This document shows, in pieces, positions 4,241 to 12,937 of a DNA stretch of 12,937 nt. Positions within the stretch are counted from its first letter, which is position 1. The number at the start of each line of letters is the position of its first letter. The translations under genes were made by a program, and so were the position numbers. The stretch lies in the UHGV virus genome UHGV-0262016; one strand, 5' to 3'. The notes beneath the pieces were generated by a model. That model was not told the origin of the DNA. It ran no database searches and saw only the letters and a list, made by a program, of their open reading frames with translations. The DNA comes from a virus.

Positions 4241-4421
4241 GCTGACCTCATTTCCCCTTAACGCCGGGGTAGCGGAACAAAAACCTGCTGCATAGTTATT
4301 AAAGTTGAACCCTGCCGTCATGTTCTTACGCCTCGGGCTGGCTACTTAACCCCTGACCACTGCCTGGTAACTCGAAGTATTGCCCTGCGTTCTGTGGGGC
4401 GGGGTGGGTTGGTATGGAAAA

Positions 4422-4464
4422 ACTATAGGTAATGCCTAATTATTTGTCAATAGGCTATGCCTAA
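4422..4464 (-). promoter_or_regulatory. PL-like leftward promoter with overlapping operators (OL1 4425-4439, OL2 4450-4464)
   Basis: On the minus strand: -35 TTGACA (plus 4445-4450), 17-bp spacer, -10 TATAGT (plus 4422-4427). Operators ATAGGT-aat-GCCTAA and ATAGGC-tat-GCCTAA, centres 25 bp apart, match the OR palindromes. Confidence 0.6.
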
Positions 4465-4558
4465 TAATTTAGATGCAACCTAATAAGTGATGGTATGTGG
4501 GAGATGTAGTAGGAGTTAACTAACGGGATCTAGGAGTTTCCCGTCGGACCATATAAGT

Positions 4559-5035
4559 TTAAGTTCCTGTCTTGGTGATGTTCTGGCTTTTCCGTTTTGA
4601 TTCTTGATTTTTCAAATAGTTACCTACCTTCATTTCCATTGCGGCAATGTAGGCGCGAACGTCATGATCAACCCAACTAGGCTCCGTAGCATTTCCAGAT
4701 AAGAGGAAAGCTACAATTGCTCTTTTTTCATCAGAGGCGGCTTGATAAAGGCTGTTTATGTCTAAAAGTTCACTTTTTGTATTTGAAGTGGATGGGGTTG
4801 GTATGGGGTATTCGTTAAGCCCCCAATGCTCTGGACCAACCACATCAGAAAAGAAACGCCATAGTTCTGGAAGTTTATCTTTACTTATCGAACCTTTCTT
4901 AATCCAGTCATGGATTGATGGTGGTTGGACTTTGAAATGACGTGCGATCTCCGCCTTTGATTTGACGGCTCCTGATGCAATTTTTTTGTTAATGGCCTGC
5001 TCTATCGCTCGGCCCAAGTCTTTACCACTAAGCAT
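4559..5035 (-). CDS. racR: Prophage repressor, HTH (XRE/CI-like), 158 aa, RacR-like
   Basis: 158-aa ORF with an HTH-like segment (SKAEIARHFKVQPPSIHDWIKKG); SD GGAG 11 nt upstream. Divergent from a cro-like gene and flanked by operator palindromes. The 158/107/141-aa trio matches the Rac racR-ydaS-ydaT layout as recalled; symbol by synteny and length. Confidence 0.65.
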   Translation of the reverse strand: MLSGKDLGRAIEQAINKKIASGAVKSKAEIARHFKVQPPSIHDWIKKGSISKDKLPELWRFFSDVVGPEHWGLNEYPIPTPSTSNTKSELLDINSLYQAASDEKRAIVAFLLSGNATEPSWVDHDVRAYIAAMEMKVGNYLKNQESKRKSQNITKTGT

Positions 5036-5063
5036 TGCTTAATAGTCTCCTATGCGCATCGCG

Positions 5064-5132
5064 TTAGGCAATCCCTATGTTTAGTGCATTAGGCATAGCC
5101 TATTGACAATTGCGTTAGGCGAAGCCTAATAT
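5064..5132 (+). promoter_or_regulatory. OR/PR region: three operators (OR3 5064-5078, OR2 5089-5103, OR1 5115-5129) and the rightward promoter
   Basis: OR1 TTAGGCgaaGCCTAA is a perfect palindrome; OR2 TTAGGCataGCCTAT; OR3 TTAGGCaatCCCTAT is degenerate. Centres are 25-26 bp apart. -35 TTGACA 5103-5108, 18-bp spacer, -10 TAATAT 5127-5132; OR1 overlaps the spacer and -10. Confidence 0.65.
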
Positions 5133-5159
5133 CATTGTGTGTTTTTTGGAGTTCATTCG

Positions 5160-5483
5160 ATGAAAAAAGAGAACTATTCATTCAAACGGGCTTGTGCTGT
5201 TGTCGGTGGGCAATCAGCAATGGCTAGGCTTTTAGGTGTATCTCCTCCAAGCGTAAATCAATGGATCAAAGGTGTACGTCAGTTGCCTGCTGAGAGATGT
5301 CCTGCGATTGAACGAGCAACAAAAGGTGGTGTCCTGTGTGAAGAACTTCGTCCTGATGTTGATTGGTCATACTTACGACGCCCGTCATGTTATTCGCAGA
5401 ATATGTCGATGAAGCAACCAAATGACGAAAACGATCATACCCGAAGCATCAAGAGGCAAATGATTCATGAAAATCAAACATGA
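5160..5483 (+). CDS. ydaS: Cro/CII-like HTH protein (YdaS-like)
   Basis: ATG at 5160 with SD GGAG 8 nt upstream, about 28 nt after the PR -10. HTH-like GGQSAMARLLGVSPPSVNQWIKG. Divergent from the repressor. Confidence 0.6.
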   Translation: MKKENYSFKRACAVVGGQSAMARLLGVSPPSVNQWIKGVRQLPAERCPAIERATKGGVLCEELRPDVDWSYLRRPSCYSQNMSMKQPNDENDHTRSIKRQMIHENQT

Positions 5484-5892
5484 GCACATCCGCATGGCGA
5501 TGAATGCCTGGGCGCGTCCGGATGGTGAAAAAGTTCCGGTAGCCGAGATAACCAGGGTTTATTTCGAGCTGGGCATGACGTTTCCTGAGCTGTACGACGA
5601 CAGCCATCCGGAAGCCCTGGCCCGCAATACTCAGAAAATTTTCCGCTGGGTAGAGAAAGACACCCCTGATGCTGTTGAAAAAATTCAGGCGTTGTTACCA
5701 GCGATCGAAAAAGCAATGCCGCCTCTGCTGGTGGCCCGAATGCGCAGCCACAGTTCAGCCTTTTTTCGGGAACTGGTGGAGACGCGGGAACGACTGGTGA
5801 GAGACGCTGATGATTTTGTCGCAGTGGCGATCGCTGGTTTCAATCAGATGAATCGTGGTGGCCCGGCGGGAAATGCCGTGGTCGTTCATTAA
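5467..5892 (+). CDS. ydaT: YdaT-like protein (141 aa)
   Basis: ATG at 5467 overlaps the end of the previous gene; SD GAGG 10 nt upstream. Length and position as in Rac ydaT. Symbol by synteny. Confidence 0.55.
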   Translation: MKIKHEHIRMAMNAWARPDGEKVPVAEITRVYFELGMTFPELYDDSHPEALARNTQKIFRWVEKDTPDAVEKIQALLPAIEKAMPPLLVARMRSHSSAFFRELVETRERLVRDADDFVAVAIAGFNQMNRGGPAGNAVVVH

Positions 5893-5913
5893 GAATAGTA
5901 CAGGAGAAAATGG

Positions 5914-6207
5914 ATGACATTTACAAATGAAGGTCGAATTGTTTTTGATTTTGAGTACGAAACACCATTGCAGAGATTGATTATGTTAAGAATTTTCTGC
6001 TCTGGGAGTGGTGATGGTGGGCGCGAAAAGCGTTTTGAAGATCAGGAATTCCGACGTTTTTGTTGTTGTACGTTTGATGAGTTTGAGCAGGCTATCGCGA
6101 AACTTATCGAGATGGGAGTGATTCATAAAATAAGTTATGGATATCAATACGGAAAGCCATCAAGCGGTTACATCATCAAAGATCCGGGTGAAATTATTCA
6201 GTTATGA
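5914..6207 (+). CDS. Hypothetical 97-aa protein, translationally coupled to the replication initiator
   Basis: SD AGGAG 7 nt upstream of ATG 5914; its stop overlaps the next start (ATGA at 6204-6207). Confidence 0.5.
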   Translation: MTFTNEGRIVFDFEYETPLQRLIMLRIFCSGSGDGGREKRFEDQEFRRFCCCTFDEFEQAIAKLIEMGVIHKISYGYQYGKPSSGYIIKDPGEIIQL

Positions 6208-7169
6208 GTCTTCTTTTTGCTGAACGTCCGCTGGTTATTAACACGCATCTGGCGATGAAAATTGGCCTGAACGAAGCCATCGTGTTGCAGCAGCTGCATT
6301 ACTGGTTGAGAGATACCGGTTCCGGCATGGAATGTGATGGTGTTCGCTGGATTTATAACACAACAGAACAATGGCTGGAACAGTTCCCGTTCTGGTCAGA
6401 GTCAACGTTAAAACGCGCATTTGCAAGTCTGAAAACGCTGGGGCTTTTGCGTTGCGAAAAGCTCAACAAATCAAAGCGTGACATGACTAATTTTTACACG
6501 ATTAATTACGAGAGCGAGCTTTTAGATGGTGGCAAAGTGAGCGAATCCATCAGGTCAAAATGCGCTGCTCCATCAGGTCAAAATGACACGATGGAAGAGG
6601 TCAAAATGAAACGCTCCATTGGTTCAAAACGACCCAATGTCATCGGGTCAAAATGGCCCGATGATCTTACAGAGAATACAACAGAGATTACTACAGAGAA
6701 TAAAAATACTTCTCGTCCGGAAGCTTCGCAACCGGACCCGCAGACGGCTGAACAGGATTTTTTAACCCGGCACCCTGACGCGGTTGTGTTCAGTGCGAAA
6801 AAACGCCGATGGGGAAGCCAGGAAGATTTGGCGTGTGCGCAGTGGATCTGGGGGCGGGTTGTAAACCTGTACGAACAGGCTGCCAGCGACGATGGCGAGA
6901 TCACGCGACCGAAAGAGCCCAACTGGACGGAATGGGCCAATGACGTGCGCACAATGCGGATGCTTGATGGCAGAACTCACAGGCAAATTTGCGAAATGTT
7001 TGGTCGGGTACAGCGGGATCCCTTTTGGGTAAAAAATATCATGAGTCCGTCAAAGCTTCGTGAAAAATGGGACGAACTGGTCATCCGCCTGGGGCGTTCG
7101 CCTGTACAGCGTTGTGTGAATCACATTTCTGAACCGGACACTGAAATTCCGCCGGGGTTCAGGGGGTGA
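6204..7169 (+). CDS. Replication initiator (lambda O-like origin-binding protein) with the origin iterons inside its coding sequence
   Basis: 321-aa ORF. Its central linker is encoded by five ~23-bp iterons followed by an AT-rich repeat block, the hallmark of lambdoid O genes. Confidence 0.7.
   Translation: MSLLFAERPLVINTHLAMKIGLNEAIVLQQLHYWLRDTGSGMECDGVRWIYNTTEQWLEQFPFWSESTLKRAFASLKTLGLLRCEKLNKSKRDMTNFYTINYESELLDGGKVSESIRSKCAAPSGQNDTMEEVKMKRSIGSKRPNVIGSKWPDDLTENTTEITTENKNTSRPEASQPDPQTAEQDFLTRHPDAVVFSAKKRRWGSQEDLACAQWIWGRVVNLYEQAASDDGEITRPKEPNWTEWANDVRTMRMLDGRTHRQICEMFGRVQRDPFWVKNIMSPSKLREKWDELVIRLGRSPVQRCVNHISEPDTEIPPGFRG
6545..6702. repeat. Putative phage replication origin: five iterons (core GGTCAAAATG at 6553, 6576, 6599, ~6621, 6646) plus three 12-bp-phased ACAGAGA(A/T)TA repeats (6669, 6681, 6693)
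   Basis: Iteron copies 1 and 2 share 17 identical bases (TCCATCAGGTCAAAATG). Spacing is 22-25 bp (about two helical turns). An AT-rich block follows immediately. Confidence 0.65.
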
Positions 7170-7209
7170 GTGTTGATTTCAGGTTATGAGGTAATTTTCA
7201 GGAGGGCTT

Positions 7210-7629
7210 GTGGCAAAAGTATTTACACAAGAAGAGCGGGAAAAAATTAAAGGGCAGGTTATTGAACTTGTACACCAGAGTGGGCGCGAGACGTTACGGC
7301 AACTGGAAGCCAAGACAGGTGCGACAAGATATCTGATGAGCGTTCTCGCAAGAGAGCTGGTTGCCAGTGGGGATGTATACAACTCTGGCTACGGGTTATT
7401 CCCGTCAGAACAGGCTCGTAAGGACTGGCAAAACGCCCGCAAAAAACTCTCGAGAGCAAAGCTGAAGAAAACATCTGTGGTTGATCCGGACCTTATCTGG
7501 TCGTTACCAGACGGAGAAATACGCCGCTACGACAGGCGTCAGAACATAATCTGTCGCGAGTGCCGGAGAAGTGAAGTTATGCAGCGAGTTTTGATGTTTT
7601 ACAGGGGTAATAACGGAGCAACGATATGA
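7210..7629 (+). CDS. Hypothetical 139-aa protein with a possible N-terminal winged-helix/HTH segment
   Basis: GTG start at 7210 with SD GGAGG 4 nt upstream; stop overlaps the next start (ATGA). Product begins MAKVFTQEEREKIKGQVIELVHQSGRETLRQLEAKTGATRYLMSVLARELV. Confidence 0.5.
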   Translation: MAKVFTQEEREKIKGQVIELVHQSGRETLRQLEAKTGATRYLMSVLARELVASGDVYNSGYGLFPSEQARKDWQNARKKLSRAKLKKTSVVDPDLIWSLPDGEIRRYDRRQNIICRECRRSEVMQRVLMFYRGNNGATI

Positions 7630-7925
7630 GGGTTTATATCGCAGGGCCGATGACCGGGTATAAAAATTTCAATCGTGAGGCGTTTCACAAGGCAGAAGAG
7701 AAGCTGAAACGGGAAGGGCATACCGTCTTAAACCCGGCAGTACTTCCAGACGGGCTGACACAGCCACACTACATGGATATTTGCATGGCAATGATTCGTT
7801 GTGTGGATGCGATTTACATGCTGAAAGGCTGGCAGCGGTCAGCAGGCGCTAAGGCAGAACTGGCGCTGGCGGCGAAACTGGGGCATGAGGTTGTATTTCA
7901 GGAGGCAACCAGTGAGCAAGATTGA
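7626..7925 (+). CDS. Small protein with a YIAGPMTG N-terminal motif (nucleoside 2-deoxyribosyltransferase-like / DUF4406-like fold)
   Basis: Product MRVYIAGPMTGYKNFNREAFHKAEEKLKREGHTVLNPAVLP... SD GGAG 7 nt upstream. Family assignment is from motif memory only. Confidence 0.5.
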   Translation: MRVYIAGPMTGYKNFNREAFHKAEEKLKREGHTVLNPAVLPDGLTQPHYMDICMAMIRCVDAIYMLKGWQRSAGAKAELALAAKLGHEVVFQEATSEQD

Positions 7926-8520
7926 CTATCAGGCACTGCGTGAGGCGGCACAGAACGCGAAAGATTTAGGTGGGATTAAGAATTACAAGCGAGGTGAGCA
8001 AGCTGTTGCCGAATTTGAGTCCTTGATAACGGCACACCTTGTGCTGGCACTGCTGGATGAACGGGAAAGAAACCAGCAATACATAAAACGCCGCGATCAG
8101 GAGAACGAGGAAATTGCGCTAACGGTAGGGAAGCTGCGTGTTGAGCTTGAAGCAGAAAAATCAAAACTCAACGAGCAGCGTGAGTATTACGAGGGAGTAA
8201 TCGCGGATGGAAGTAAGCGCATAGCAGAACTGGAAGCACGGGAAATAAAACCAGCCAAAGGCGAAGTTCTTGTCGTTGTATCTGGTTTTACTGGTTGCGG
8301 GAAAAGCGCCATTGCCGGGGAAATAGAAATTGCGATGAAAGCTATTGGTGTGCCGGTTCTATGGACTAATGGCGATGCGGAAAAGCGCATGACAGGAGCT
8401 GACTGGCTGACAGCGATTGAGATGTACAAACCAACTGTGCGCATCGTGGAAGTTAATGTGCCACGCGCCGCTGGCATTCGCATCAAAGGAGAGGAGCATG
8501 CAAATAAAACCAGAAGATGA
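7912..8520 (+). CDS. Hypothetical 202-aa protein with a coiled-coil central region (possibly Ead/Ea22-like)
   Basis: GTG at 7912 with SD GGAGG 6 nt upstream is preferred over the track's ATG at 7885, which lies inside the previous gene. Product starts MSKIDYQALREAAQNAKDLGG... The family suggestion is tentative. Confidence 0.5.
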   Translation: MSKIDYQALREAAQNAKDLGGIKNYKRGEQAVAEFESLITAHLVLALLDERERNQQYIKRRDQENEEIALTVGKLRVELEAEKSKLNEQREYYEGVIADGSKRIAELEAREIKPAKGEVLVVVSGFTGCGKSAIAGEIEIAMKAIGVPVLWTNGDAEKRMTGADWLTAIEMYKPTVRIVEVNVPRAAGIRIKGEEHANKTRR

Positions 8521-8854
8521 GTTAAGTAATATTGTTTTATTTCCGGTAAAAGAGGATGACCCGCGTAATCAGGTTAATTTTCTTTATGAGCCATCGGAAA
8601 GACCATATTGTCATCACGCTTCTGTCCAGGTTGACGAAAAAGAGCGTCAGGTCCGCTGTAAAATCTGCGGTGCAGTTGTGGAGCCGTTTGACTGGATGCT
8701 CTCTGTGGCGAAAAGAGAAACCAGACTGGCAGATGATGTAAGGCTATTGCGCCAGGAGGAACGGGAAAGACGGAAAAATATAGAAAAGTTAATTCAGATT
8801 GAGCGTAACGCGAAAGCGCGGATACGCAGGGCGACAAAATCCAGAACTGAATAA
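8498..8854 (+). CDS. Hypothetical 118-aa protein with Cys/His cluster (CHH...CxxC), possible zinc ribbon
   Basis: ATG at 8498 with SD AGGAGAGGAG immediately upstream; overlaps the end of the previous gene. The track's longer start at 8417 lacks an SD. Confidence 0.5.
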   Translation: MQIKPEDELSNIVLFPVKEDDPRNQVNFLYEPSERPYCHHASVQVDEKERQVRCKICGAVVEPFDWMLSVAKRETRLADDVRLLRQEERERRKNIEKLIQIERNAKARIRRATKSRTE

Positions 8855-8918
8855 TTAAATTTGGCACTGTTAAAAATTTTATCCTTAACCGGAGGGATTT
8901 CTGCACCCTCAGAACATC

Positions 8919-8949
8919 AGGAGGCCGCCCGAAAGGGCGGTAATAAATA
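8919..8949 (+). promoter_or_regulatory. Structured translation-initiation region: SD AGGAGG, then a GC hairpin with GAAA tetraloop (CCGCCC-GAAA-GGGCGG, 8925-8940), then 9 nt to the ATG
   Basis: SD-to-ATG distance is 25 nt in linear sequence but about 9 nt if the 16-nt hairpin forms. A second hairpin GAGGG/CCCTC lies at 8892-8910. Confidence 0.4.
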
Positions 8950-9426
8950 ATGCAAGAAATCAAAGAAAATATCAGACAACAGCTTTACGGGTTTTATATT
9001 GCTTATGATTTGTGGCTGAGTAATGGGGCGAAACCCGGCGGGGTGTTTTCTCAAAGTTATGGTTTATGCGCCAATCTTTTTGATTATCTCACATTAATTG
9101 GTGCCCCCAGCGAAGCGGCACTGGAACAATTACACACGGATTTCAGAAGTACCGGGCTGAATGAGGTGTTGCCATTTAACGAGAGTAAAGGGCATTACTA
9201 TGAAGAAAAAGGGAACAACATGTGCCATATGAATCCGGCGCGGGCGGCGTGGGTCAGGGCACAGATGGTGCAGGCAGTGCCGGACGGACTGGTTAAGGCT
9301 GTACGCTTCTATGAACAGGTAAAGTGTGAGAATCCGCCAGCTGAAACCGGAGCATGGAAAGACGCTGTTGACTGGGTACTCAAGGAGGCCTGCCAGGCTG
9401 TAAACATTGGCAACAAAGGAGAGTGA
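8950..9426 (+). CDS. Hypothetical 158-aa protein
   Basis: ORF starting at ATG 8950 behind the structured leader; its stop abuts the next gene's start. No family recognised. Confidence 0.55.
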   Translation: MQEIKENIRQQLYGFYIAYDLWLSNGAKPGGVFSQSYGLCANLFDYLTLIGAPSEAALEQLHTDFRSTGLNEVLPFNESKGHYYEEKGNNMCHMNPARAAWVRAQMVQAVPDGLVKAVRFYEQVKCENPPAETGAWKDAVDWVLKEACQAVNIGNKGE

Positions 9427-9427
9427 T

Positions 9428-9646
9428 GTGCCTACATTATTCAGAAAAGAATATCCGCGAAAAAGTAGAGCGACAGAATTTTTGTTTCTCATTCTGTTTA
9501 TCGTGTTGATGACACCGATATCCCCGCTAATTTTTGTCTGGGCAATCGGGAAAATAATTGAGCCAGTTATTGAATTGTATAACGACGTGGTATGGGCGTC
9601 ATTCAACACACTGCACAATAAAATTAATCCGTATAAGGAAAGCTGA
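9428..9646 (+). CDS. Small membrane protein (72 aa, one predicted transmembrane helix)
   Basis: GTG at 9428 with SD AAGGAG 6 nt upstream, directly after the previous stop. Hydrophobic core FLFLILFIVLMTPISPLIFVWAIG. The track's TTG start at 9407 was rejected. Confidence 0.4.
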   Translation: MPTLFRKEYPRKSRATEFLFLILFIVLMTPISPLIFVWAIGKIIEPVIELYNDVVWASFNTLHNKINPYKES

Positions 9647-9647
9647 T

Positions 9648-10013
9648 ATGGCACTGACGAAAAAACAACGCGCAGAACTGCGCATGAAGTTCGGTGGTCG
9701 CTGTGCTTATTGCGGCTGTGAACTTGGCGAAAAGTGGCATGCAGACCATGTAAAACCGGTCATTCGTTTTGCTGGAAATATGCTTCACCAGGAGCGTGAC
9801 GATATATCCAACATGGTTCCGGCATGCCACCCATGCAATCTGCACAAGCATTGCAGTAGCCTGGAAGATTATCGGCGAATTATCAGTGATGGTCGTCGTG
9901 AATTCCTTGCGTCCGGGAAAGGCAAAGCGCTGGTTCGTATGGGGTTGGTTGAAATGAAATCTGACCCGGTTGTGTTCTGGTTTGAAAAATATCAAGAAGG
10001 GGCTACGGCATGA
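9648..10013 (+). CDS. HNH endonuclease (121 aa)
   Basis: ATG at 9648 with SD AAGGAA 7 nt upstream. HNH/zinc-finger nuclease signature: CAYCGCEL...WHADHVKP...N...PACHPCNLHK. Confidence 0.7.
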   Translation: MALTKKQRAELRMKFGGRCAYCGCELGEKWHADHVKPVIRFAGNMLHQERDDISNMVPACHPCNLHKHCSSLEDYRRIISDGRREFLASGKGKALVRMGLVEMKSDPVVFWFEKYQEGATA

Positions 10014-10408
10014 CCACTTTTACCAATAGCAAACTAACAGACGAATACGTTTCAAATGCAACGTTGATTCGGCTCATTCTGTGGGCTGACCAGCACAATA
10101 GCCATTATGTTGTAGCGGCTCTGCGCGAGCTACAGGAGCGCCGCAAGGCTGATAGTGTGCCTGTAGAAATCAACGACGACATGGCTTACGCATTCCACCA
10201 TGCGCTTTCTGACTCATCGCCTGGCTCTGATGAAATCGAAGAAATTAAAACCGGGTTGCGTGCTGCCTTTGCCAATGTCACCGTCCAGCCGGTGCTGATA
10301 GTGCCTGATGAAATGGATTTGCTTACCTGCCATCTCGACGGCGTAACTGAAACATATGCTGATGGCTGGAACGCCTGCCGCGCCGCCATGCTTAAGGGAG
10401 ATAAATAA
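10010..10408 (+). CDS. Hypothetical 132-aa protein
   Basis: ATG at 10010 overlaps the HNH stop (ATGA). Acidic product, no family recognised. Confidence 0.55.
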   Translation: MTTFTNSKLTDEYVSNATLIRLILWADQHNSHYVVAALRELQERRKADSVPVEINDDMAYAFHHALSDSSPGSDEIEEIKTGLRAAFANVTVQPVLIVPDEMDLLTCHLDGVTETYADGWNACRAAMLKGDK

Positions 10409-10971
10409 TGATTAATCGAACCAAACTGGAACACATTCTCGAATATGCCAGGCAGCAGAAATGTATTGGGCAACTTTGTAAAATTCCACCAGGAGATATG
10501 GTTGAAATCGTGGAAATGGCCATGCGTAAGGCTGGCAACTCTCCGGTAACTCCGGCTCGCCTGCCTGGTGGTTTCACCATTGAGGATGCGAAGGAGTTAC
10601 ATGAAGACCTGGTTCGCAGCCACATAAGCCAGGCTTTAAGTGGTGAAAAGATGAAAAAGAACGATCGCGATGCTGATTTGCGCTGGATTCATGGCGTTAT
10701 AGTACAGGCAGCGTGGTTTGTGAAAGCTTCACTGGATGCGTTGCCTGAACCGCTGCGGGAGGAGAAGGGAGGAAGTGCCAACTGTACTGCCAGTCATGGT
10801 ACAACCGACAATCCACCAGTACCAGGCAAACAGACTGACGAATTAACCATGCTGGTTAAGCAATTGGTCAGTCAACTGAAGAAAGTGAAGCCGGACTGTA
10901 AATTGCCGGATAAGGCGATGGACTACCTGAAGCGGAACGAACTGATAAGTGCGGAGGATGTTTTGCGATGA
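10408..10971 (+). CDS. Hypothetical 187-aa protein
   Basis: ATG at 10408 overlaps the previous stop (TAATG); SD AAGGGAG 7 nt upstream. Confidence 0.55.
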   Translation: MINRTKLEHILEYARQQKCIGQLCKIPPGDMVEIVEMAMRKAGNSPVTPARLPGGFTIEDAKELHEDLVRSHISQALSGEKMKKNDRDADLRWIHGVIVQAAWFVKASLDALPEPLREEKGGSANCTASHGTTDNPPVPGKQTDELTMLVKQLVSQLKKVKPDCKLPDKAMDYLKRNELISAEDVLR

Positions 10972-11051
10972 CCTGGCCTGAAGCATTCACAACGGTAGGA
11001 ATTGCGATGGCGGTGGCGCTGGTGGTGTATTCGATTTGCCGTTGGGGATAA
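10968..11051 (+). CDS. Possible 27-aa hydrophobic peptide (MTWPEAFTTVGIAMAVALVVYSICRWG)
   Basis: ATG at 10968 overlaps the previous stop (ATGA); SD GGAGG 10 nt upstream. Ends 10 nt before a strong terminator. Too short for statistical support. Confidence 0.3.
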   Translation: MTWPEAFTTVGIAMAVALVVYSICRWG

Positions 11052-11060
11052 CAAACAAAA

Positions 11061-11087
11061 ACCCCGGATTGATGGTCCGGGGTTTTT
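11061..11087 (+). terminator. Strong intrinsic terminator at the end of the rightward early gene cluster
   Basis: Perfect 8-bp stem ACCCCGGA/TCCGGGGT with 7-nt loop, followed by TTTTT; an A-tract lies upstream. Confidence 0.8.
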
Positions 11088-11423
11088 GAAGGAAACAAAA
11101 CAGAAACAACAATTGCCGTTACCTGTTGTTACCATGGCAAGTAAACGCATCTCAGGCGAGCGCATTGCACCGTTCTGACGCAGATAAATTAGCCTGGATA
11201 GATGGTGCTGGCAATAAAAAATAGCGTTTTCTTATCGGTGTCGGTAAGATTGCTGCGGGTGCTTGAGGCTGTCTGCCTCGGGCATGCCACTGTAAGGCAG
11301 GCAGAGAAAAGCCCCAGTTAACATTACGCGTCCGGCAAGACGCTTAACATTAATCTGAGGCTCCCTATGCATGACAACATCAGGTTAGCCTCTTACGTGC
11401 CGAAAGGCAAGGAGAAGCAGGCT

Positions 11424-11579
11424 ATGAAGCAGCAAAAGGCGATGTTAATCGCCCTGATCGTCATCTGTTTAACCGTCATAGTGACGGCACTGGTAACGAG
11501 GAAAGACCTCTGCGAGGTACGAATCCGAACCGGCCAGACGGAGGTCGCTGTCTTCGTAGACTACGAATCTAGAGAGTAA
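11424..11579 (+). CDS. hokD: Hok/Gef-family type I toxin (51 aa), HokD/RelF-like
   Basis: Product MKQQKAMLIALIVICLTVIVTALVTRKDLCEVRIRTGQTEVAVFVDYESRE is a Hok-family signature, nearly identical to HokD/RelF as recalled. SD GGAG 9 nt upstream. An in-frame upstream ATG at 11367 (SD GAGG 6 nt upstream) gives a 70-aa mok-like extended frame. Confidence 0.8.
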   Translation: MKQQKAMLIALIVICLTVIVTALVTRKDLCEVRIRTGQTEVAVFVDYESRE

Positions 11580-11649
11580 GAGTGACCAGGCGGGGGAGAA
11601 ATCCCTCGCCACCTCTGATGTGTCAGGCATCCTCAACGCACCCGCACTT

Positions 11650-11670
11650 AACCCGCTTCGGCGGGTTTTT
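11650..11670 (+). terminator. Intrinsic terminator at the hok mRNA 3' end
   Basis: AACCCGC-TTCG-GCGGGTT followed by TTTTT. The same 20-bp core recurs at 12498-12517. Confidence 0.75.
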
Positions 11671-11685
11671 CGTCGCATTATGAGG

Positions 11686-11733
11686 TTGTAATTTTAGCTA
11701 CCATTAGACTATCCTAAGGATCTCAAACAGATC
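11686..11733 (+). promoter_or_regulatory. Candidate promoter (-35 TTGTAA 11686-11691, -10 TATCCT 11710-11715) with an adjacent inverted repeat GATCT-N5-AGATC (11719-11733) upstream of the Doc-module ORFs
   Basis: Hexamers with an 18-bp spacer. The palindrome contains two GATC sites and sits at the predicted transcription start, the usual place for an autorepression operator. Confidence 0.35.
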
Positions 11734-11796
11734 TATTTTGCATCAAATTTGGTGCATGGCTTTGCCAATAATCGGAAAACAAAAGGACTCATTAGT

Positions 11797-11976
11797 ATGA
11801 GCTGCCCACTCAAAAAACACACGCGGTTGAGTATTCCGCCTCGCGATAAAAGCGTTGTGGCAGTCCCTCGCCCAGCGATTGATGAAAACTGCGCACATCG
11901 TGAACAAGTGAAAAATGCTTTTGATTTCGGTTTTTCTCGTTATGAGAAAGCCATGGAAGAACTTTCAAAAGTGTAA
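11797..11976 (+). CDS. Small ORF upstream of the Doc-family toxin; candidate antitoxin of non-Phd type
   Basis: ATG at 11797 with SD AAGGA 9 nt upstream. Product MSCPLKKHTRLSIPPRDKSVVAVPRPAIDENCAHREQVKNAFDFGFSRYEKAMEELSKV (59 aa). Ends about 20 nt before the toxin start. Role inferred only from its position. Confidence 0.45.
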   Translation: MSCPLKKHTRLSIPPRDKSVVAVPRPAIDENCAHREQVKNAFDFGFSRYEKAMEELSKV

Positions 11977-11994
11977 TGATGGGTATTGTGCTCT

Positions 11995-12480
11995 ATGGCT
12001 GAGATTGTTGAAGGAGTGCATTACCTTACGGTTGATGATCTTGTTGAAATCAATCGTTCCCTAATTGAATTACAGACGCCAGATGAGCCCGTTGGTGTTC
12101 TGAGTCCAGATAACTTAAGTTCTTCTCAGGCCCGTCCCAGCATGGTTCGATGGTATGAACAGACTAATGACATGTTTGTACTGGCATCGGTATTGATTGA
12201 AAGTCTGATTCAGAATCACCCGTTTGCTAATGCGAACAAACGAACAGCTATGATGGCTGGTTACGTCTTCTTGTTGTTGAATGGCTATGAGTTAACAGCA
12301 CCAGGCGATGAAATCGTGGAAATGGCAGAGGGACTGGCCTGCAAAATCTATACTCGAGAAGATCTCGAGAACTGGTTGTGTTATTGGTCTCGCGCGTATG
12401 ACAGCCGGGAATTATGTAAAACAGGCGCAACTATTGTTTTGTATGAAACTATCAAGCTTAAAATAGAACAGCAAAACTAA
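11995..12480 (+). CDS. Doc-family (Fic/Doc fold) toxin, 161 aa
   Basis: Contains the Doc signature H-x-F-x-N-A-N-K-R (HPFANANKRTAMMAGYVFLLLNGYEL); the N-terminal segment (YLTVDDLVEINRSLIE) is also Doc-like. Start taken as ATG 11995; a TTG at 11986 is possible. Confidence 0.75.
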   Translation: MAEIVEGVHYLTVDDLVEINRSLIELQTPDEPVGVLSPDNLSSSQARPSMVRWYEQTNDMFVLASVLIESLIQNHPFANANKRTAMMAGYVFLLLNGYELTAPGDEIVEMAEGLACKIYTREDLENWLCYWSRAYDSRELCKTGATIVLYETIKLKIEQQN

Positions 12481-12496
12481 AGGTGCTTCCAATGAA

Positions 12497-12518
12497 AACC
12501 CGCTTCGGCGGGTTTTTT
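12497..12518 (+). terminator. Intrinsic terminator after the Doc gene (second copy of the 20-bp terminator repeat)
   Basis: AAAACCCGC-TTCG-GCGGG followed by TTTTTT; core identical to 11651-11670. Confidence 0.75.
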
Positions 12519-12593
12519 GTTTTACGTATTCTGGTTTACAATCCACAGGCCAGCCTGAACAACTGGCACCTGCTGCGCCAGCAGAGAAAACCG

Positions 12594-12866
12594 ATGGCGC
12601 ACAATACCAAACATCACAATTCTGATACCGACCTTGCCAGCAGGCACGGGCGGCGTTCTCATACATTCAAATATGACTGGTACCAGCATGATCCATGCAC
12701 TGAAGAACAGGCCGAATGGCTGATTCAGAACTACCGCAGACGCGGATACGAGATTAAGAAAGCCCTCAGCCTCGATTATCGTCACTGGATAATCTACGTC
12801 AGGCTGCCGTACTCCGAGCGCCCACCGCGTCCGTCCCGTACATTCCAGCAACGCATCTGGAGGTAA
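12594..12866 (+). CDS. Hypothetical 90-aa basic protein (possibly Rem-like by position after hok)
   Basis: Start taken as ATG 12594 because the upstream part of track ORF 12483..12866 runs across the terminator hairpin. SD is weak. Positional analogy to Qin rem only. Confidence 0.4.
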   Translation: MAHNTKHHNSDTDLASRHGRRSHTFKYDWYQHDPCTEEQAEWLIQNYRRRGYEIKKALSLDYRHWIIYVRLPYSERPPRPSRTFQQRIWR

Positions 12867-12867
12867 C

Positions 12868-12937
12868 GTGCGGGTATTACTTCGACCTGTTCTGGTACCG
12901 GAACTCGGGCTGGTGGTCGTTAAGCCGGGCCGTGAAT
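12868..12937 (+). CDS. 5' end of a gene running off the right edge (possibly YdfU/DUF968-like by position)
   Basis: GTG at 12868 with SD GGAGG 4 nt upstream, directly after the previous stop. Open to the window end (MRVLLRPVLVPELGLVVVKPGRE...). Confidence 0.35.
   Translation, partial: MRVLLRPVLVPELGLVVVKPGRE

Follow-up and report, generated by a model that had tools for sequence, protein, structure and literature searches.

A predicted HNH nuclease gene among probable accessory cassettes in the early operon of a Rac-like lambdoid Escherichia coli prophage

The nin region of phage lambda encodes NinG (Rap), a branch-specific endonuclease. Ten small phage HNH enzymes of the [CxxC]2 type have been characterised as site- and strand-specific nickases (PMC3592412). 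A survey of lambdoid phages has described HNH genes occurring sporadically in early operons, and has cautioned that, since they appear to be mobile, little can be concluded about their function from where they lie (PMC12315714). Here we examine the viral sequence UHGV-0262016, the full 12,937-nucleotide (nt) stretch of which we call the window, and in it a block of four small genes on the plus strand at 9428-10971 that includes a predicted HNH nuclease gene. A first-pass annotation had described these genes as a discrete, tightly coupled block and had offered two explanations, an ordinary nin-region set or a nuclease-based accessory function. Our analysis favours, with a rough probability of 0.72, the reading that the block is an arbitrary slice of a long, coupled, rightward early operon made of independently assorting accessory cassettes, with the HNH protein as a candidate nickase, and not a dedicated system.

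The genes of the block, together with a fifth that follows it, are as follows.

9428-9646, plus strand: DUF4014 gene, 72 amino acids (aa), GTG start (Pfam PF13198, phrog_1832)
9648-10013, plus strand: HNH gene, 121 aa (Pfam HNH, phrog_2118)
10010-10408, plus strand: gene of a 132-aa protein (phrog_12449)
10408-10971, plus strand: gene of a 187-aa protein (phrog_24004, phrog_924 and phrog_660, by segment)
10968-11051, plus strand: gene of a 27-aa hydrophobic peptide, read from the sequence

The four open reading frames (ORFs) starting at 9428, 9648, 10010 and 10408 are present as first annotated. They are real genes: the Pfam matches of the DUF4014 and HNH products exceed the cut-offs, all four products match PHROG families, and substitution patterns among related loci indicate purifying selection on every gene or segment of the block. 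A Shine-Dalgarno-like purine run lies 6-9 nt 5' of each of the four starts. The overlapping or abutting stop and start codons noted earlier were recovered at the HNH/132-aa junction (ATGA, 10010-10013) and the 132-aa/187-aa junction (TAATG, 10406-10410), but the DUF4014 and HNH genes are separated by a 1-nt spacer, TGA(9644-9646)-t-ATG(9648), and do not overlap; the entry into the DUF4014 gene has the same form, TGA(9424-9426)-t-GTG(9428). Rfam and tRNA scans gave no match within the four-gene block. An antisense ORF over the HNH gene was dismissed as spurious, with a ratio of nonsynonymous to synonymous polymorphism (pN/pS) of 4.6 and stops in 4 of 23 haplotypes. Opposite the DUF4014 gene, a 174-aa antisense ORF (9130-9654, minus strand) does match phrog_20982 (E=1.8e-40), and here the substitution patterns favour the sense frame only modestly (pN/pS 0.41 antisense vs 0.27 sense; stops in 2 of 23 vs 1 of 23 haplotypes). 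The sense frame is favoured because of its Pfam match, ribosome-binding site and coupling, and phrog_20982 is probably a family of mis-annotations.

The tight spacing is not peculiar to these genes. Judged by its gene content, the window comes from a Rac-like lambdoid prophage of E. coli and covers its early region, the location that the first-pass annotation had given: a pR-like promoter, a cro gene and replication genes lie upstream of the block, and the gene order agrees with that of the early region of the E. coli A8 prophage. The features that frame the operon are these.

4559-5035, minus strand: repressor gene, from the window annotation
5103-5132, plus strand: pR-like promoter, 5' of the cro/YdaS-like gene; 10 of 12 matches in the promoter scan
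8950-9426, plus strand: gene of a 158-aa protein, abutting the DUF4014 gene by TGA-t-GTG
11056-11088, both directions: terminator-like G+C-rich hairpin of 13 pairs with A-run and T-run flanks, from the terminator scan

From pR, the plus strand carries a cro/YdaS-like gene, a YdaT-like gene and genes for a replication protein, DUF977, DUF4406, an Ead/Ea22 protein, a zinc-ribbon protein and the 158-aa protein, and then the block; the hairpin at 11056-11088 closes this string and divides the block from a hok/sok locus. Between cro and the terminator, the successive gaps are -17, 21, -4, 40, -4, -41, -23, 95, 1, 1, -4, -1 and -4 nt, so that 9 of the 13 junctions overlap or lie within one base; tight coupling is a property of the operon as a whole. 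The site at 5103-5132 is the only strong promoter-like site on the plus strand upstream of the block, a weak one (9/12) lying at 8973-9000 inside the gene that starts at 8950. The scan of 4400-12937 returned 5 sites against 10.9 expected by chance and no internal promoter for the block above that chance level.

Nor do the four genes travel together. We counted each feature, at no less than 80% coverage, in 5426 complete E. coli genomes. The HNH gene occurs in 385 of them and DUF4014 in 1012 (at 1721 places), the contiguous DUF4014-HNH pair in 217, and the four-gene stretch, taken as at least 80% of its 1544 nt, in only 3. A further 160 HNH loci from genomes and viral contigs brought the total to more than 170, among which 75 HNH clusters at 90% identity are combined with 81 clusters of upstream and 71 of downstream neighbours. 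At 78 of 80 species-level HNH loci, no DUF4014 gene lies within 5 kb. The spacing of the HNH gene is stereotyped all the same: on the upstream side, 68 loci have a gap of +1, 28 of -4 and 16 of -1, and on the downstream side 113 loci have a gap of -4, regardless of the neighbour. Since the HNH gene is nearly always coupled, whatever stands next to it, the coupling is no evidence of a specific partnership. Individual genomes tell the same story of substitution. In 933W, a different gene follows DUF4014; in UTI89, a different gene precedes HNH; in strain FDAARGOS_1304, the place of HNH is taken by two other small genes; and at the four loci of one upstream-neighbour cluster, a protein that shares the C-terminal module of the window's 158-aa protein directly precedes HNH with no DUF4014 between. 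The Shiga toxin (Stx) phage ArgO145 carries the same DUF4014-HNH pair, its HNH protein 99% identical, about 4 kb from int in its early-left operon. The neighbours of the HNH gene in the prophages of other species include NinB, NinG, YbcO, RusA, a DUF559 endonuclease and Ead/Ea22, often with replication genes upstream or an integrase downstream; this neighbour survey relied on home-made profiles of limited sensitivity, and 42 of the 80 loci showed none of the markers. Because the four-gene combination is so rare, the alternative neighbours are many and the coupling is operon-wide, the genes do not form a unit, and the discrete block of the first-pass annotation dissolves; we hold it highly probable that they are independent cassettes and that no four-gene system exists.

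What the cassettes do share is their junctions. Two of these recur as linkers between otherwise unrelated genes.

9630-9670, plus strand: linker A, formed by the end of the DUF4014 gene (TATAAGGAAAGCTGA), a single base, and ATG with the initial codons of the following cassette
9965-10025, plus strand: linker B, the last ~45 nt of the HNH gene (PVVFWFEKYQEGATA, with the Shine-Dalgarno sequence GAAGGGG), ATGA and the first ~12 nt of the next gene

Linker A has the form TATAAGGAAA(G/A)CTGA-N-ATG and is followed, in different prophages, by the HNH gene, a DUF551 gene, an 87-aa gene or 933W L0066, genes whose first codons resemble each other. Linker B is found identical over ~55 nt in an unrelated 55-aa gene of a prophage without HNH, and some genomes match it over 48-51 nt with 98-100% identity at places where HNH is not annotated. 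Shared junctions of this kind also lie at the comparison loci L174:3099-3209, L178:2688-2762 and L003:3507-3581. More generally, many upstream genes end in ...KGE, encoded by AAAGGAGAG and followed by the stop, so that the C-terminus of one protein encodes the ribosome-binding site of the next gene; the end of the 158-aa gene (NKGE and stop) likewise encodes the Shine-Dalgarno sequence AAGGAG of the DUF4014 gene. Because unrelated cassettes share these linkers, we infer that they couple translation, which would be the reason for their being kept, and offer, as a by-product, short homologies for the exchange of cassettes. They fit the published model in which lambdoid mosaicism arises by recombination at conserved boundary sequences (PMC3233612), and also relaxed homologous recombination by phage recombinases (PMC2327257, PMC3945230).

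The nuclease-based accessory function raised by the first-pass annotation would, in one form, make the four genes, or at least DUF4014 and HNH, an exclusion or defence module in which the membrane protein is linked to an HNH effector directed at the DNA of superinfecting phages. The tight coupling of the genes, the adjacency of DUF4014 and HNH in both orders in diverged lineages, the resemblance of the HNH fold to the effectors Cap5, PtuB and McrA, weak PADLOC matches to PtuB and the toxin-antitoxin loci nearby could all be read that way. The population data speak against it, with the full combination confined to 3 genomes, HNH adjacent in just 217 of the 1012 genomes with DUF4014, and no DUF4014 at 78 of the 80 species-level HNH loci; so does the placing of the genes within a repressed operon of early lytic genes, where they have no promoter of their own that exceeds the chance level. 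In PADLOC-DB 2.0, the HNH protein gave generic matches to the HNH core, and the DUF4014, 132-aa and 187-aa proteins gave none. The PADLOC and NCBIfam scores lie far below the family cut-offs and cover the HNH core only, which led us to reject the protein as a Septu PtuB or retron HNH (TIGR02646, 21.8 bits vs 52.15; best PADLOC PtuB match, 31.5 bits). The HNH domains of Cas9/IscB, McrA, CBASS (cyclic-oligonucleotide-based antiphage signalling system) Cap5 and Septu/retron PtuB are parts of larger proteins or subunits that work with a guide RNA, a sensor or an ATPase; no partner ATPase or sensor is present here, and neither a PtuA-type ATPase nor a reverse-transcriptase gene was found in the operon by Pfam or PHROG annotation. 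As no defence model beyond generic HNH similarity emerges, a defensive role of the block appears very improbable.

The HNH nuclease itself is well supported. The protein matches Pfam PF01844 with 28.7 bits (cut-off 21.4) over residues 19-68, as do 40 of the 40 family members examined, and it retains both the zinc ligands C19, C22, C60 and C63 of a zinc-ribbon CxxC...CxxC and the catalytic motif D33-H34 ... N55 ... N64, plus K67; all of these residues are among those invariant in the family, so the nuclease named by the first-pass annotation stands. A conserved, helical C-terminal extension is also shared family-wide. The predicted structure (predicted local distance difference test score, pLDDT, 91.3) has the beta-beta-alpha-Me fold, and its best structural matches are the HNH domain of Cas9 (score 7.6), McrA (6.7), Cap5 (6.4) and the terminase-associated HNH of GVE2 (6.3), followed by PtuB (6.1), the Gme nickase (5.8), T4 endonuclease VII (3.9) and P1 Ref (2.6). 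The pN/pS of the gene is 0.09, and the ratio of nonsynonymous to synonymous substitution rates (dN/dS) is about 0.06-0.09 and stays at 0.02-0.13 out to ~75% amino-acid identity; given such strong purifying selection, the nuclease is almost certainly active and useful to its carriers. In its full length, it is 98-100% identical to database proteins, and with the proteins named 'HNH endonuclease' in phrog_2118 and RefSeq (for instance those of A8, ArgO145 gp11 and HK225 gp056) it has length, invariant residues and early-operon location in common, and no difference sets it apart; it is a member of that family, for which we found no experimental function in the literature. The members are stand-alone proteins of ~115-145 aa. 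A first search returned 700 matches, from Enterobacterales to Comamonas, and an exhaustive one 395 representative clusters (E of at most 1e-10), with end-to-end alignment in nearly every case. Among phages, 175 genomes of unrelated types have a homologue (E of at most 1e-5), those of Acinetobacter, Vibrio, Caulobacter and Streptococcus phages included; in the T4-like Krischvirus JSE the gene adjoins DNA ligase, and in HK225 and the P22-like g341c it lies in early regions. By sequence, then, this is a cosmopolitan family of stand-alone phage proteins.

Such a distribution raises the question of whether the gene spreads by its own activity, as a free-standing homing endonuclease that cuts alleles lacking HNH at or near the junctions and is copied, with some flank, by break repair. 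Like the homing HNH endonucleases of the T4 Mob and I-HmuI classes, it is sporadic (385 of the 5426 genomes), found in unrelated phage types including the T4-like Krischvirus, where it lies beside DNA ligase, and less diverse than its flank; T4 itself is not among the phage genomes listed as matches at E of at most 1e-5. HNH proteins that are 98-100% identical (~97-99% at the nucleotide level) stand in different operons beside different neighbours, and the mobility remarked on for lambdoid HNH genes (PMC12315714) would agree with this. Among 23 DUF4014-HNH haplotypes, the synonymous diversity of HNH is half that of DUF4014 (0.091 vs 0.201), and divergence falls along DUF4014 from 15% at its 5' end to 2-3% at its 3' end, toward HNH. 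This gradient, which resembles co-conversion and is suggestive if modest, fits a lateral spread of the HNH cassette with some of its flank, by homing or by linker recombination alike. Other observations pull the opposite way. Homing endonuclease genes often decay, whereas purifying selection here is strong and has been sustained over deep divergence; the 121-aa protein is an HNH domain only, without the added DNA-binding modules of the homing enzymes. Different prophages fill the position after DUF4014 with HNH, with two small genes, with a DUF551 gene or with 933W L0066, which amounts to replacement by other cassettes with no clean empty site, and not to simple insertion. Finally, neighbours that are not nucleases show the same cassette behaviour and the same linkers, so general recombination at the linkers would suffice. 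We regard homing as unlikely.

A role in recombination or repair is suggested by the company that the gene keeps elsewhere. It could be an analogue of NinG/Rap that works together with NinB/Orf and RusA on intermediates that are branched or nicked: in other species it stands beside NinB (in Yersinia, with an ATGA overlap), NinG, YbcO, RusA or the DUF559 endonuclease; replication genes lie a median of 2.6 kb upstream in 16 of the 80 species-level loci; and the paper on Orf/NinB maps HNH genes within ninR regions. With NinG/Rap, the window protein shares a zinc-finger HNH-type core, at sub-threshold level in 12 of 40 family members, and a position in the early-right region, with the replication genes on one side and Q on the other. 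It is, however, ~80 aa shorter, its match to PF05766 reaches 20.0 bits against a cut-off of 25.4, and only profile positions 93-147 of 193 are aligned. Full NinG or RusA co-occurs with HNH in the same prophages, and other homologues lie near int or in unrelated contexts. Membership in NinG proper was rejected, the match being below the cut-off and confined to the core while a true NinG (209.6 bits) adjoins homologues elsewhere; a functional analogy is possible, if rather doubtful. Comparison of the block with the lambda nin proteins gave no Nin family in Pfam (E of at most 0.1) or NCBIfam other than this sub-threshold NinG. Of the two explanations offered for the block at the outset, the ordinary one was essentially right, but the genes are accessory cassettes of the 'ea' type and not homologues of the lambda nin genes.

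Many small phage HNH genes adjoin cos and the terminase genes, and the protein could in principle be a packaging helper of the HK97 gp74 or GVE2 type that works with terminase at cos and happens to be encoded away from the late genes. In phage Bas78, a 49%-identical homologue does lie ~0.8 kb upstream of the gene for the large terminase subunit, and the Gme HNH (4H9D) shows a marginal sequence likeness to the window protein (E=0.045). Unlike the terminase-associated nickases (the HK97 gp74 type, GVE2 5H0O, Gme 4H9D and N.phiGamma of phage gamma), though, the window HNH does not stand beside terminase or cos. The window stops short of the late genes, and the packaging region of the present prophage lies outside it; the A8 prophage, the best annotated relative and of the same gene order, supplies the comparison. 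It runs int, xis, exonuclease, dicB, repressor, YdaT, replication, DUF977, ..., DUF4014, HNH, DUF551, Hok, DUF968, RusA, Q, and continues with lysis genes and then a second HNH beside the terminase small subunit. There, the early HNH lies ~9.6 kb upstream of the packaging genes, and the separate, 34%-identical HNH stands directly before the P27-family small terminase. A homologue of the Bas78 large terminase was found within 5 kb at 0 of the 80 species-level loci, in a search with a single seed and limited sensitivity, and in ArgO145 the gene belongs to the early-left operon ~4 kb from int. A packaging role thus seems very unlikely, in agreement with the first-pass view that this is not the terminase-associated type. 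As an aside, the second HNH of A8 (L001:19734-20084), immediately upstream of the P27-family terminase small subunit, is likely to be the packaging HNH of this prophage type.

The reading that we prefer, an arbitrary slice of a modular operon, can be put as follows. The operon would run from the pR-like promoter at 5103 to the terminator at 11056 in a Rac-like lambdoid E. coli prophage, and the block would fall in its hypervariable accessory stretch, with replication genes before it and hok/sok, doc and, in relatives, DUF968-RusA-Q after it. The cassettes strung together there appear to be a DUF4014 single-pass membrane protein, the HNH nuclease, two DUF551-type fragments and the 27-aa membrane peptide, joined by what look like standardised linkers in which the end of the upstream gene carries the next ribosome-binding site, the stop, 0-1 base or an overlap, and the start; these would also serve as recombination sites for cassette swapping. 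Being on the early transcript, HNH would be made only in lytic growth, after induction or infection, and, like the characterised [CxxC]2 HNH enzymes, it would be a divalent-metal-dependent DNA nickase of short sequence specificity. Its nicks may stimulate recombination in replicating phage DNA, and such recombination would aid both recombination-dependent replication and the lateral spread of the HNH cassette itself. This specific role, a lytic-phase nickase promoting recombination, is argued by analogy and is put forward tentatively.

Several points weigh against this account. In 217 of the 385 E. coli genomes with HNH (56%), DUF4014 lies directly upstream, and HK225 and the Salmonella phage g341c carry a diverged pair in which HNH comes first and its stop overlaps the start of DUF4014 (HK225, L010:3501-4093, HNH 62% and DUF4014 47% identity; g341c, L012:3001-3638, 50% and 51%). 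Moreover, we infer the nicking, the specificity and the role in recombination, and expression in lytic growth only is taken from a simple promoter scan. The adjacency in both orders could reflect a functional link or merely a restricted pool of cassettes. A true pair, in which the membrane protein controls or localises the nuclease, would explain why diverged phages bring the two genes together in either order; alternatively, HNH might nick the conserved junction linkers and so drive both cassette shuffling and its own homing. Taken together, we consider these two variants quite unlikely.

The first cassette of the block is the DUF4014 gene. Its 72-aa product matches PF13198 over residues 2-71 with 88.4 bits (cut-off 23.2) and phrog_1832 with E=1.4e-45, and relatives in RefSeq bear the label 'DUF4014 family protein'. 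It has a basic N-terminus and one strongly hydrophobic stretch (Kyte-Doolittle maximum 2.68 from residue 19), predicted as a single transmembrane helix at about residues 17-41, so the one-helix membrane protein recorded upstream of HNH was correctly recognised. The pN/pS of the gene is 0.24-0.27. We found no paper in the literature that mentions DUF4014, and no evidence could be traced for two descriptions given in GenBank, 'O-polysaccharide acetyltransferase inhibitor', which stands on the DUF4014 homologue of the inverted pair, and 'released from the phage upon host infection'.

The 132-aa and 187-aa proteins had been listed as two unknown proteins. Neither has a match in Pfam, NCBIfam, PADLOC or the Protein Data Bank (PDB; single-sequence and profile searches), so in that sense the description holds, but both are PHROG-matched and built of modules known from DUF551-type prophage proteins. 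The 132-aa protein is acidic (isoelectric point 4.7; pN/pS of its gene 0.21), belongs to phrog_12449 (E=7e-44) and has 863 homologues, mostly of 190-230 aa and many with PF04448 (DUF551); it aligns with residues 1-128 of a DUF551 protein, 347 aa long, in E. coli A8. To judge from these alignments, it is a free-standing copy of a module that most relatives carry at the N-terminus, joined to DUF551 or to other modules on its C-terminal side. In the 187-aa protein, residues 1-42 form an N-module and residues 43-125 ('LPGGFTIEDAKELHEDLVRSHISQ...') a central module that is conserved; a low-complexity linker then leads to the C-terminal tail (146-187), which is conserved as well. Its PHROG matches follow these segments (phrog_24004 on 1-49, phrog_924 on 1-123, phrog_660 on 138-187), and parts of its gene show a pN/pS of 0.12-0.27. 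Alignments to A8 and 29 relatives reveal module shuffling, the relatives pairing the same parts with many N-modules, with or without DUF551. An AlphaFold2 model of this protein, made from a 30-sequence alignment, was unusable (pLDDT 46.8).

The A8 protein begins with the 132-aa module, followed by the central module, then DUF551 at residues 211-277 and finally the tail. Relative to it, the window has an inserted segment that introduces a stop and then a fresh start followed by a different N-module, so that one ORF of 347 aa there corresponds to two ORFs here, and DUF551 is missing: A8 residues 211-277 align to a gap in the 187-aa protein, and neither window protein matches PF04448 at E of at most 0.1. 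We considered that the pair might be one gene split by a frameshift and rejected this, since the comparison with A8 shows that a different N-module was inserted at the inter-module linker; the recurrence of the 187-aa form in databases weighs against a split gene as well. The two proteins share N-terminal, central and tail modules with the DUF551-type proteins and with Ead/Ea22, EaA and EaE, products of the 'ea' genes of P22- and lambda-like phages, and their genes lie in the same variable early regions.

Just before the terminator stands a last gene that was overlooked in the first-pass annotation. It encodes the hydrophobic 27-aa peptide MTWPEAFTTVGIAMAVALVVYSICRWG, starts within an ATGA that it shares with the stop of the 187-aa gene and has a ribosome-binding site of its own, GGAGGA. 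Of 37 related loci, 34 keep the ORF intact, preceded by four different gene ends, and it shows 25 synonymous against 6 nonsynonymous differences (pN/pS 0.08); the A8 RefSeq record carries no annotation for it. On this pattern of substitution, it is a conserved, unannotated gene for a predicted membrane peptide and the fifth coupled gene of the string.

Some features of the surroundings deserve mention in their own right. At the window's left-hand end, the minus strand carries the end of a RecE-like exonuclease gene, DUF1482 (2159-2416) and DicB (2359-2547), in the order seen in many E. coli Rac/Qin-type prophages; long ORFs seem to be lacking in 1-2547 because the exonuclease gene runs off the edge of the window. 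A perfect G+C hairpin, CCGCCC-GAAA-GGGCGG, lies at 8925-8940, 9 nt before the start of the 158-aa gene and within the sole sizeable intergenic gap of the operon (8855-8949); having no T-run, it is not a canonical terminator. The Ead/Ea22-like protein (7885-8520, plus strand) has a Walker-A-like motif, GFTGCGKS, in its C-terminal half; Pfam AAA_16 and APS_kinase match the protein at sub-threshold level only, and a similar segment occurs in a downstream neighbour of HNH in another species. Directly past the terminator lies a hok/sok type I toxin-antitoxin locus (11257-11579, plus strand; Rfam sok at 11257-11429, 109.6 bits; the Hok-family ORF ends at 11579), and beyond it a Doc-family toxin (11986-12480, plus strand; TIGR01550, 126 bits), preceded by a 75-aa ORF (11749-11976, plus strand) without a family match that may be its antitoxin.

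As found, the block matters little in itself: all its genes are already in public databases, under the same uninformative names and at 86-100% identity, and the arrangement is the familiar, already known mosaic of lambdoid early regions, assembled from catalogued prophage accessory genes. The analysis has nevertheless defined a family of small HNH proteins that stand alone, are cosmopolitan and evolve under strong selection and, as a minor by-product, a conserved and previously unannotated gene for a 27-aa membrane peptide. If the HNH protein does nick the junction linkers, it would provide a mechanism for cassette exchange, although this is speculative. The linkers themselves are a clear worked example of standardised junctions among unrelated cassettes and, as such, support the boundary-sequence model of lambdoid mosaicism.

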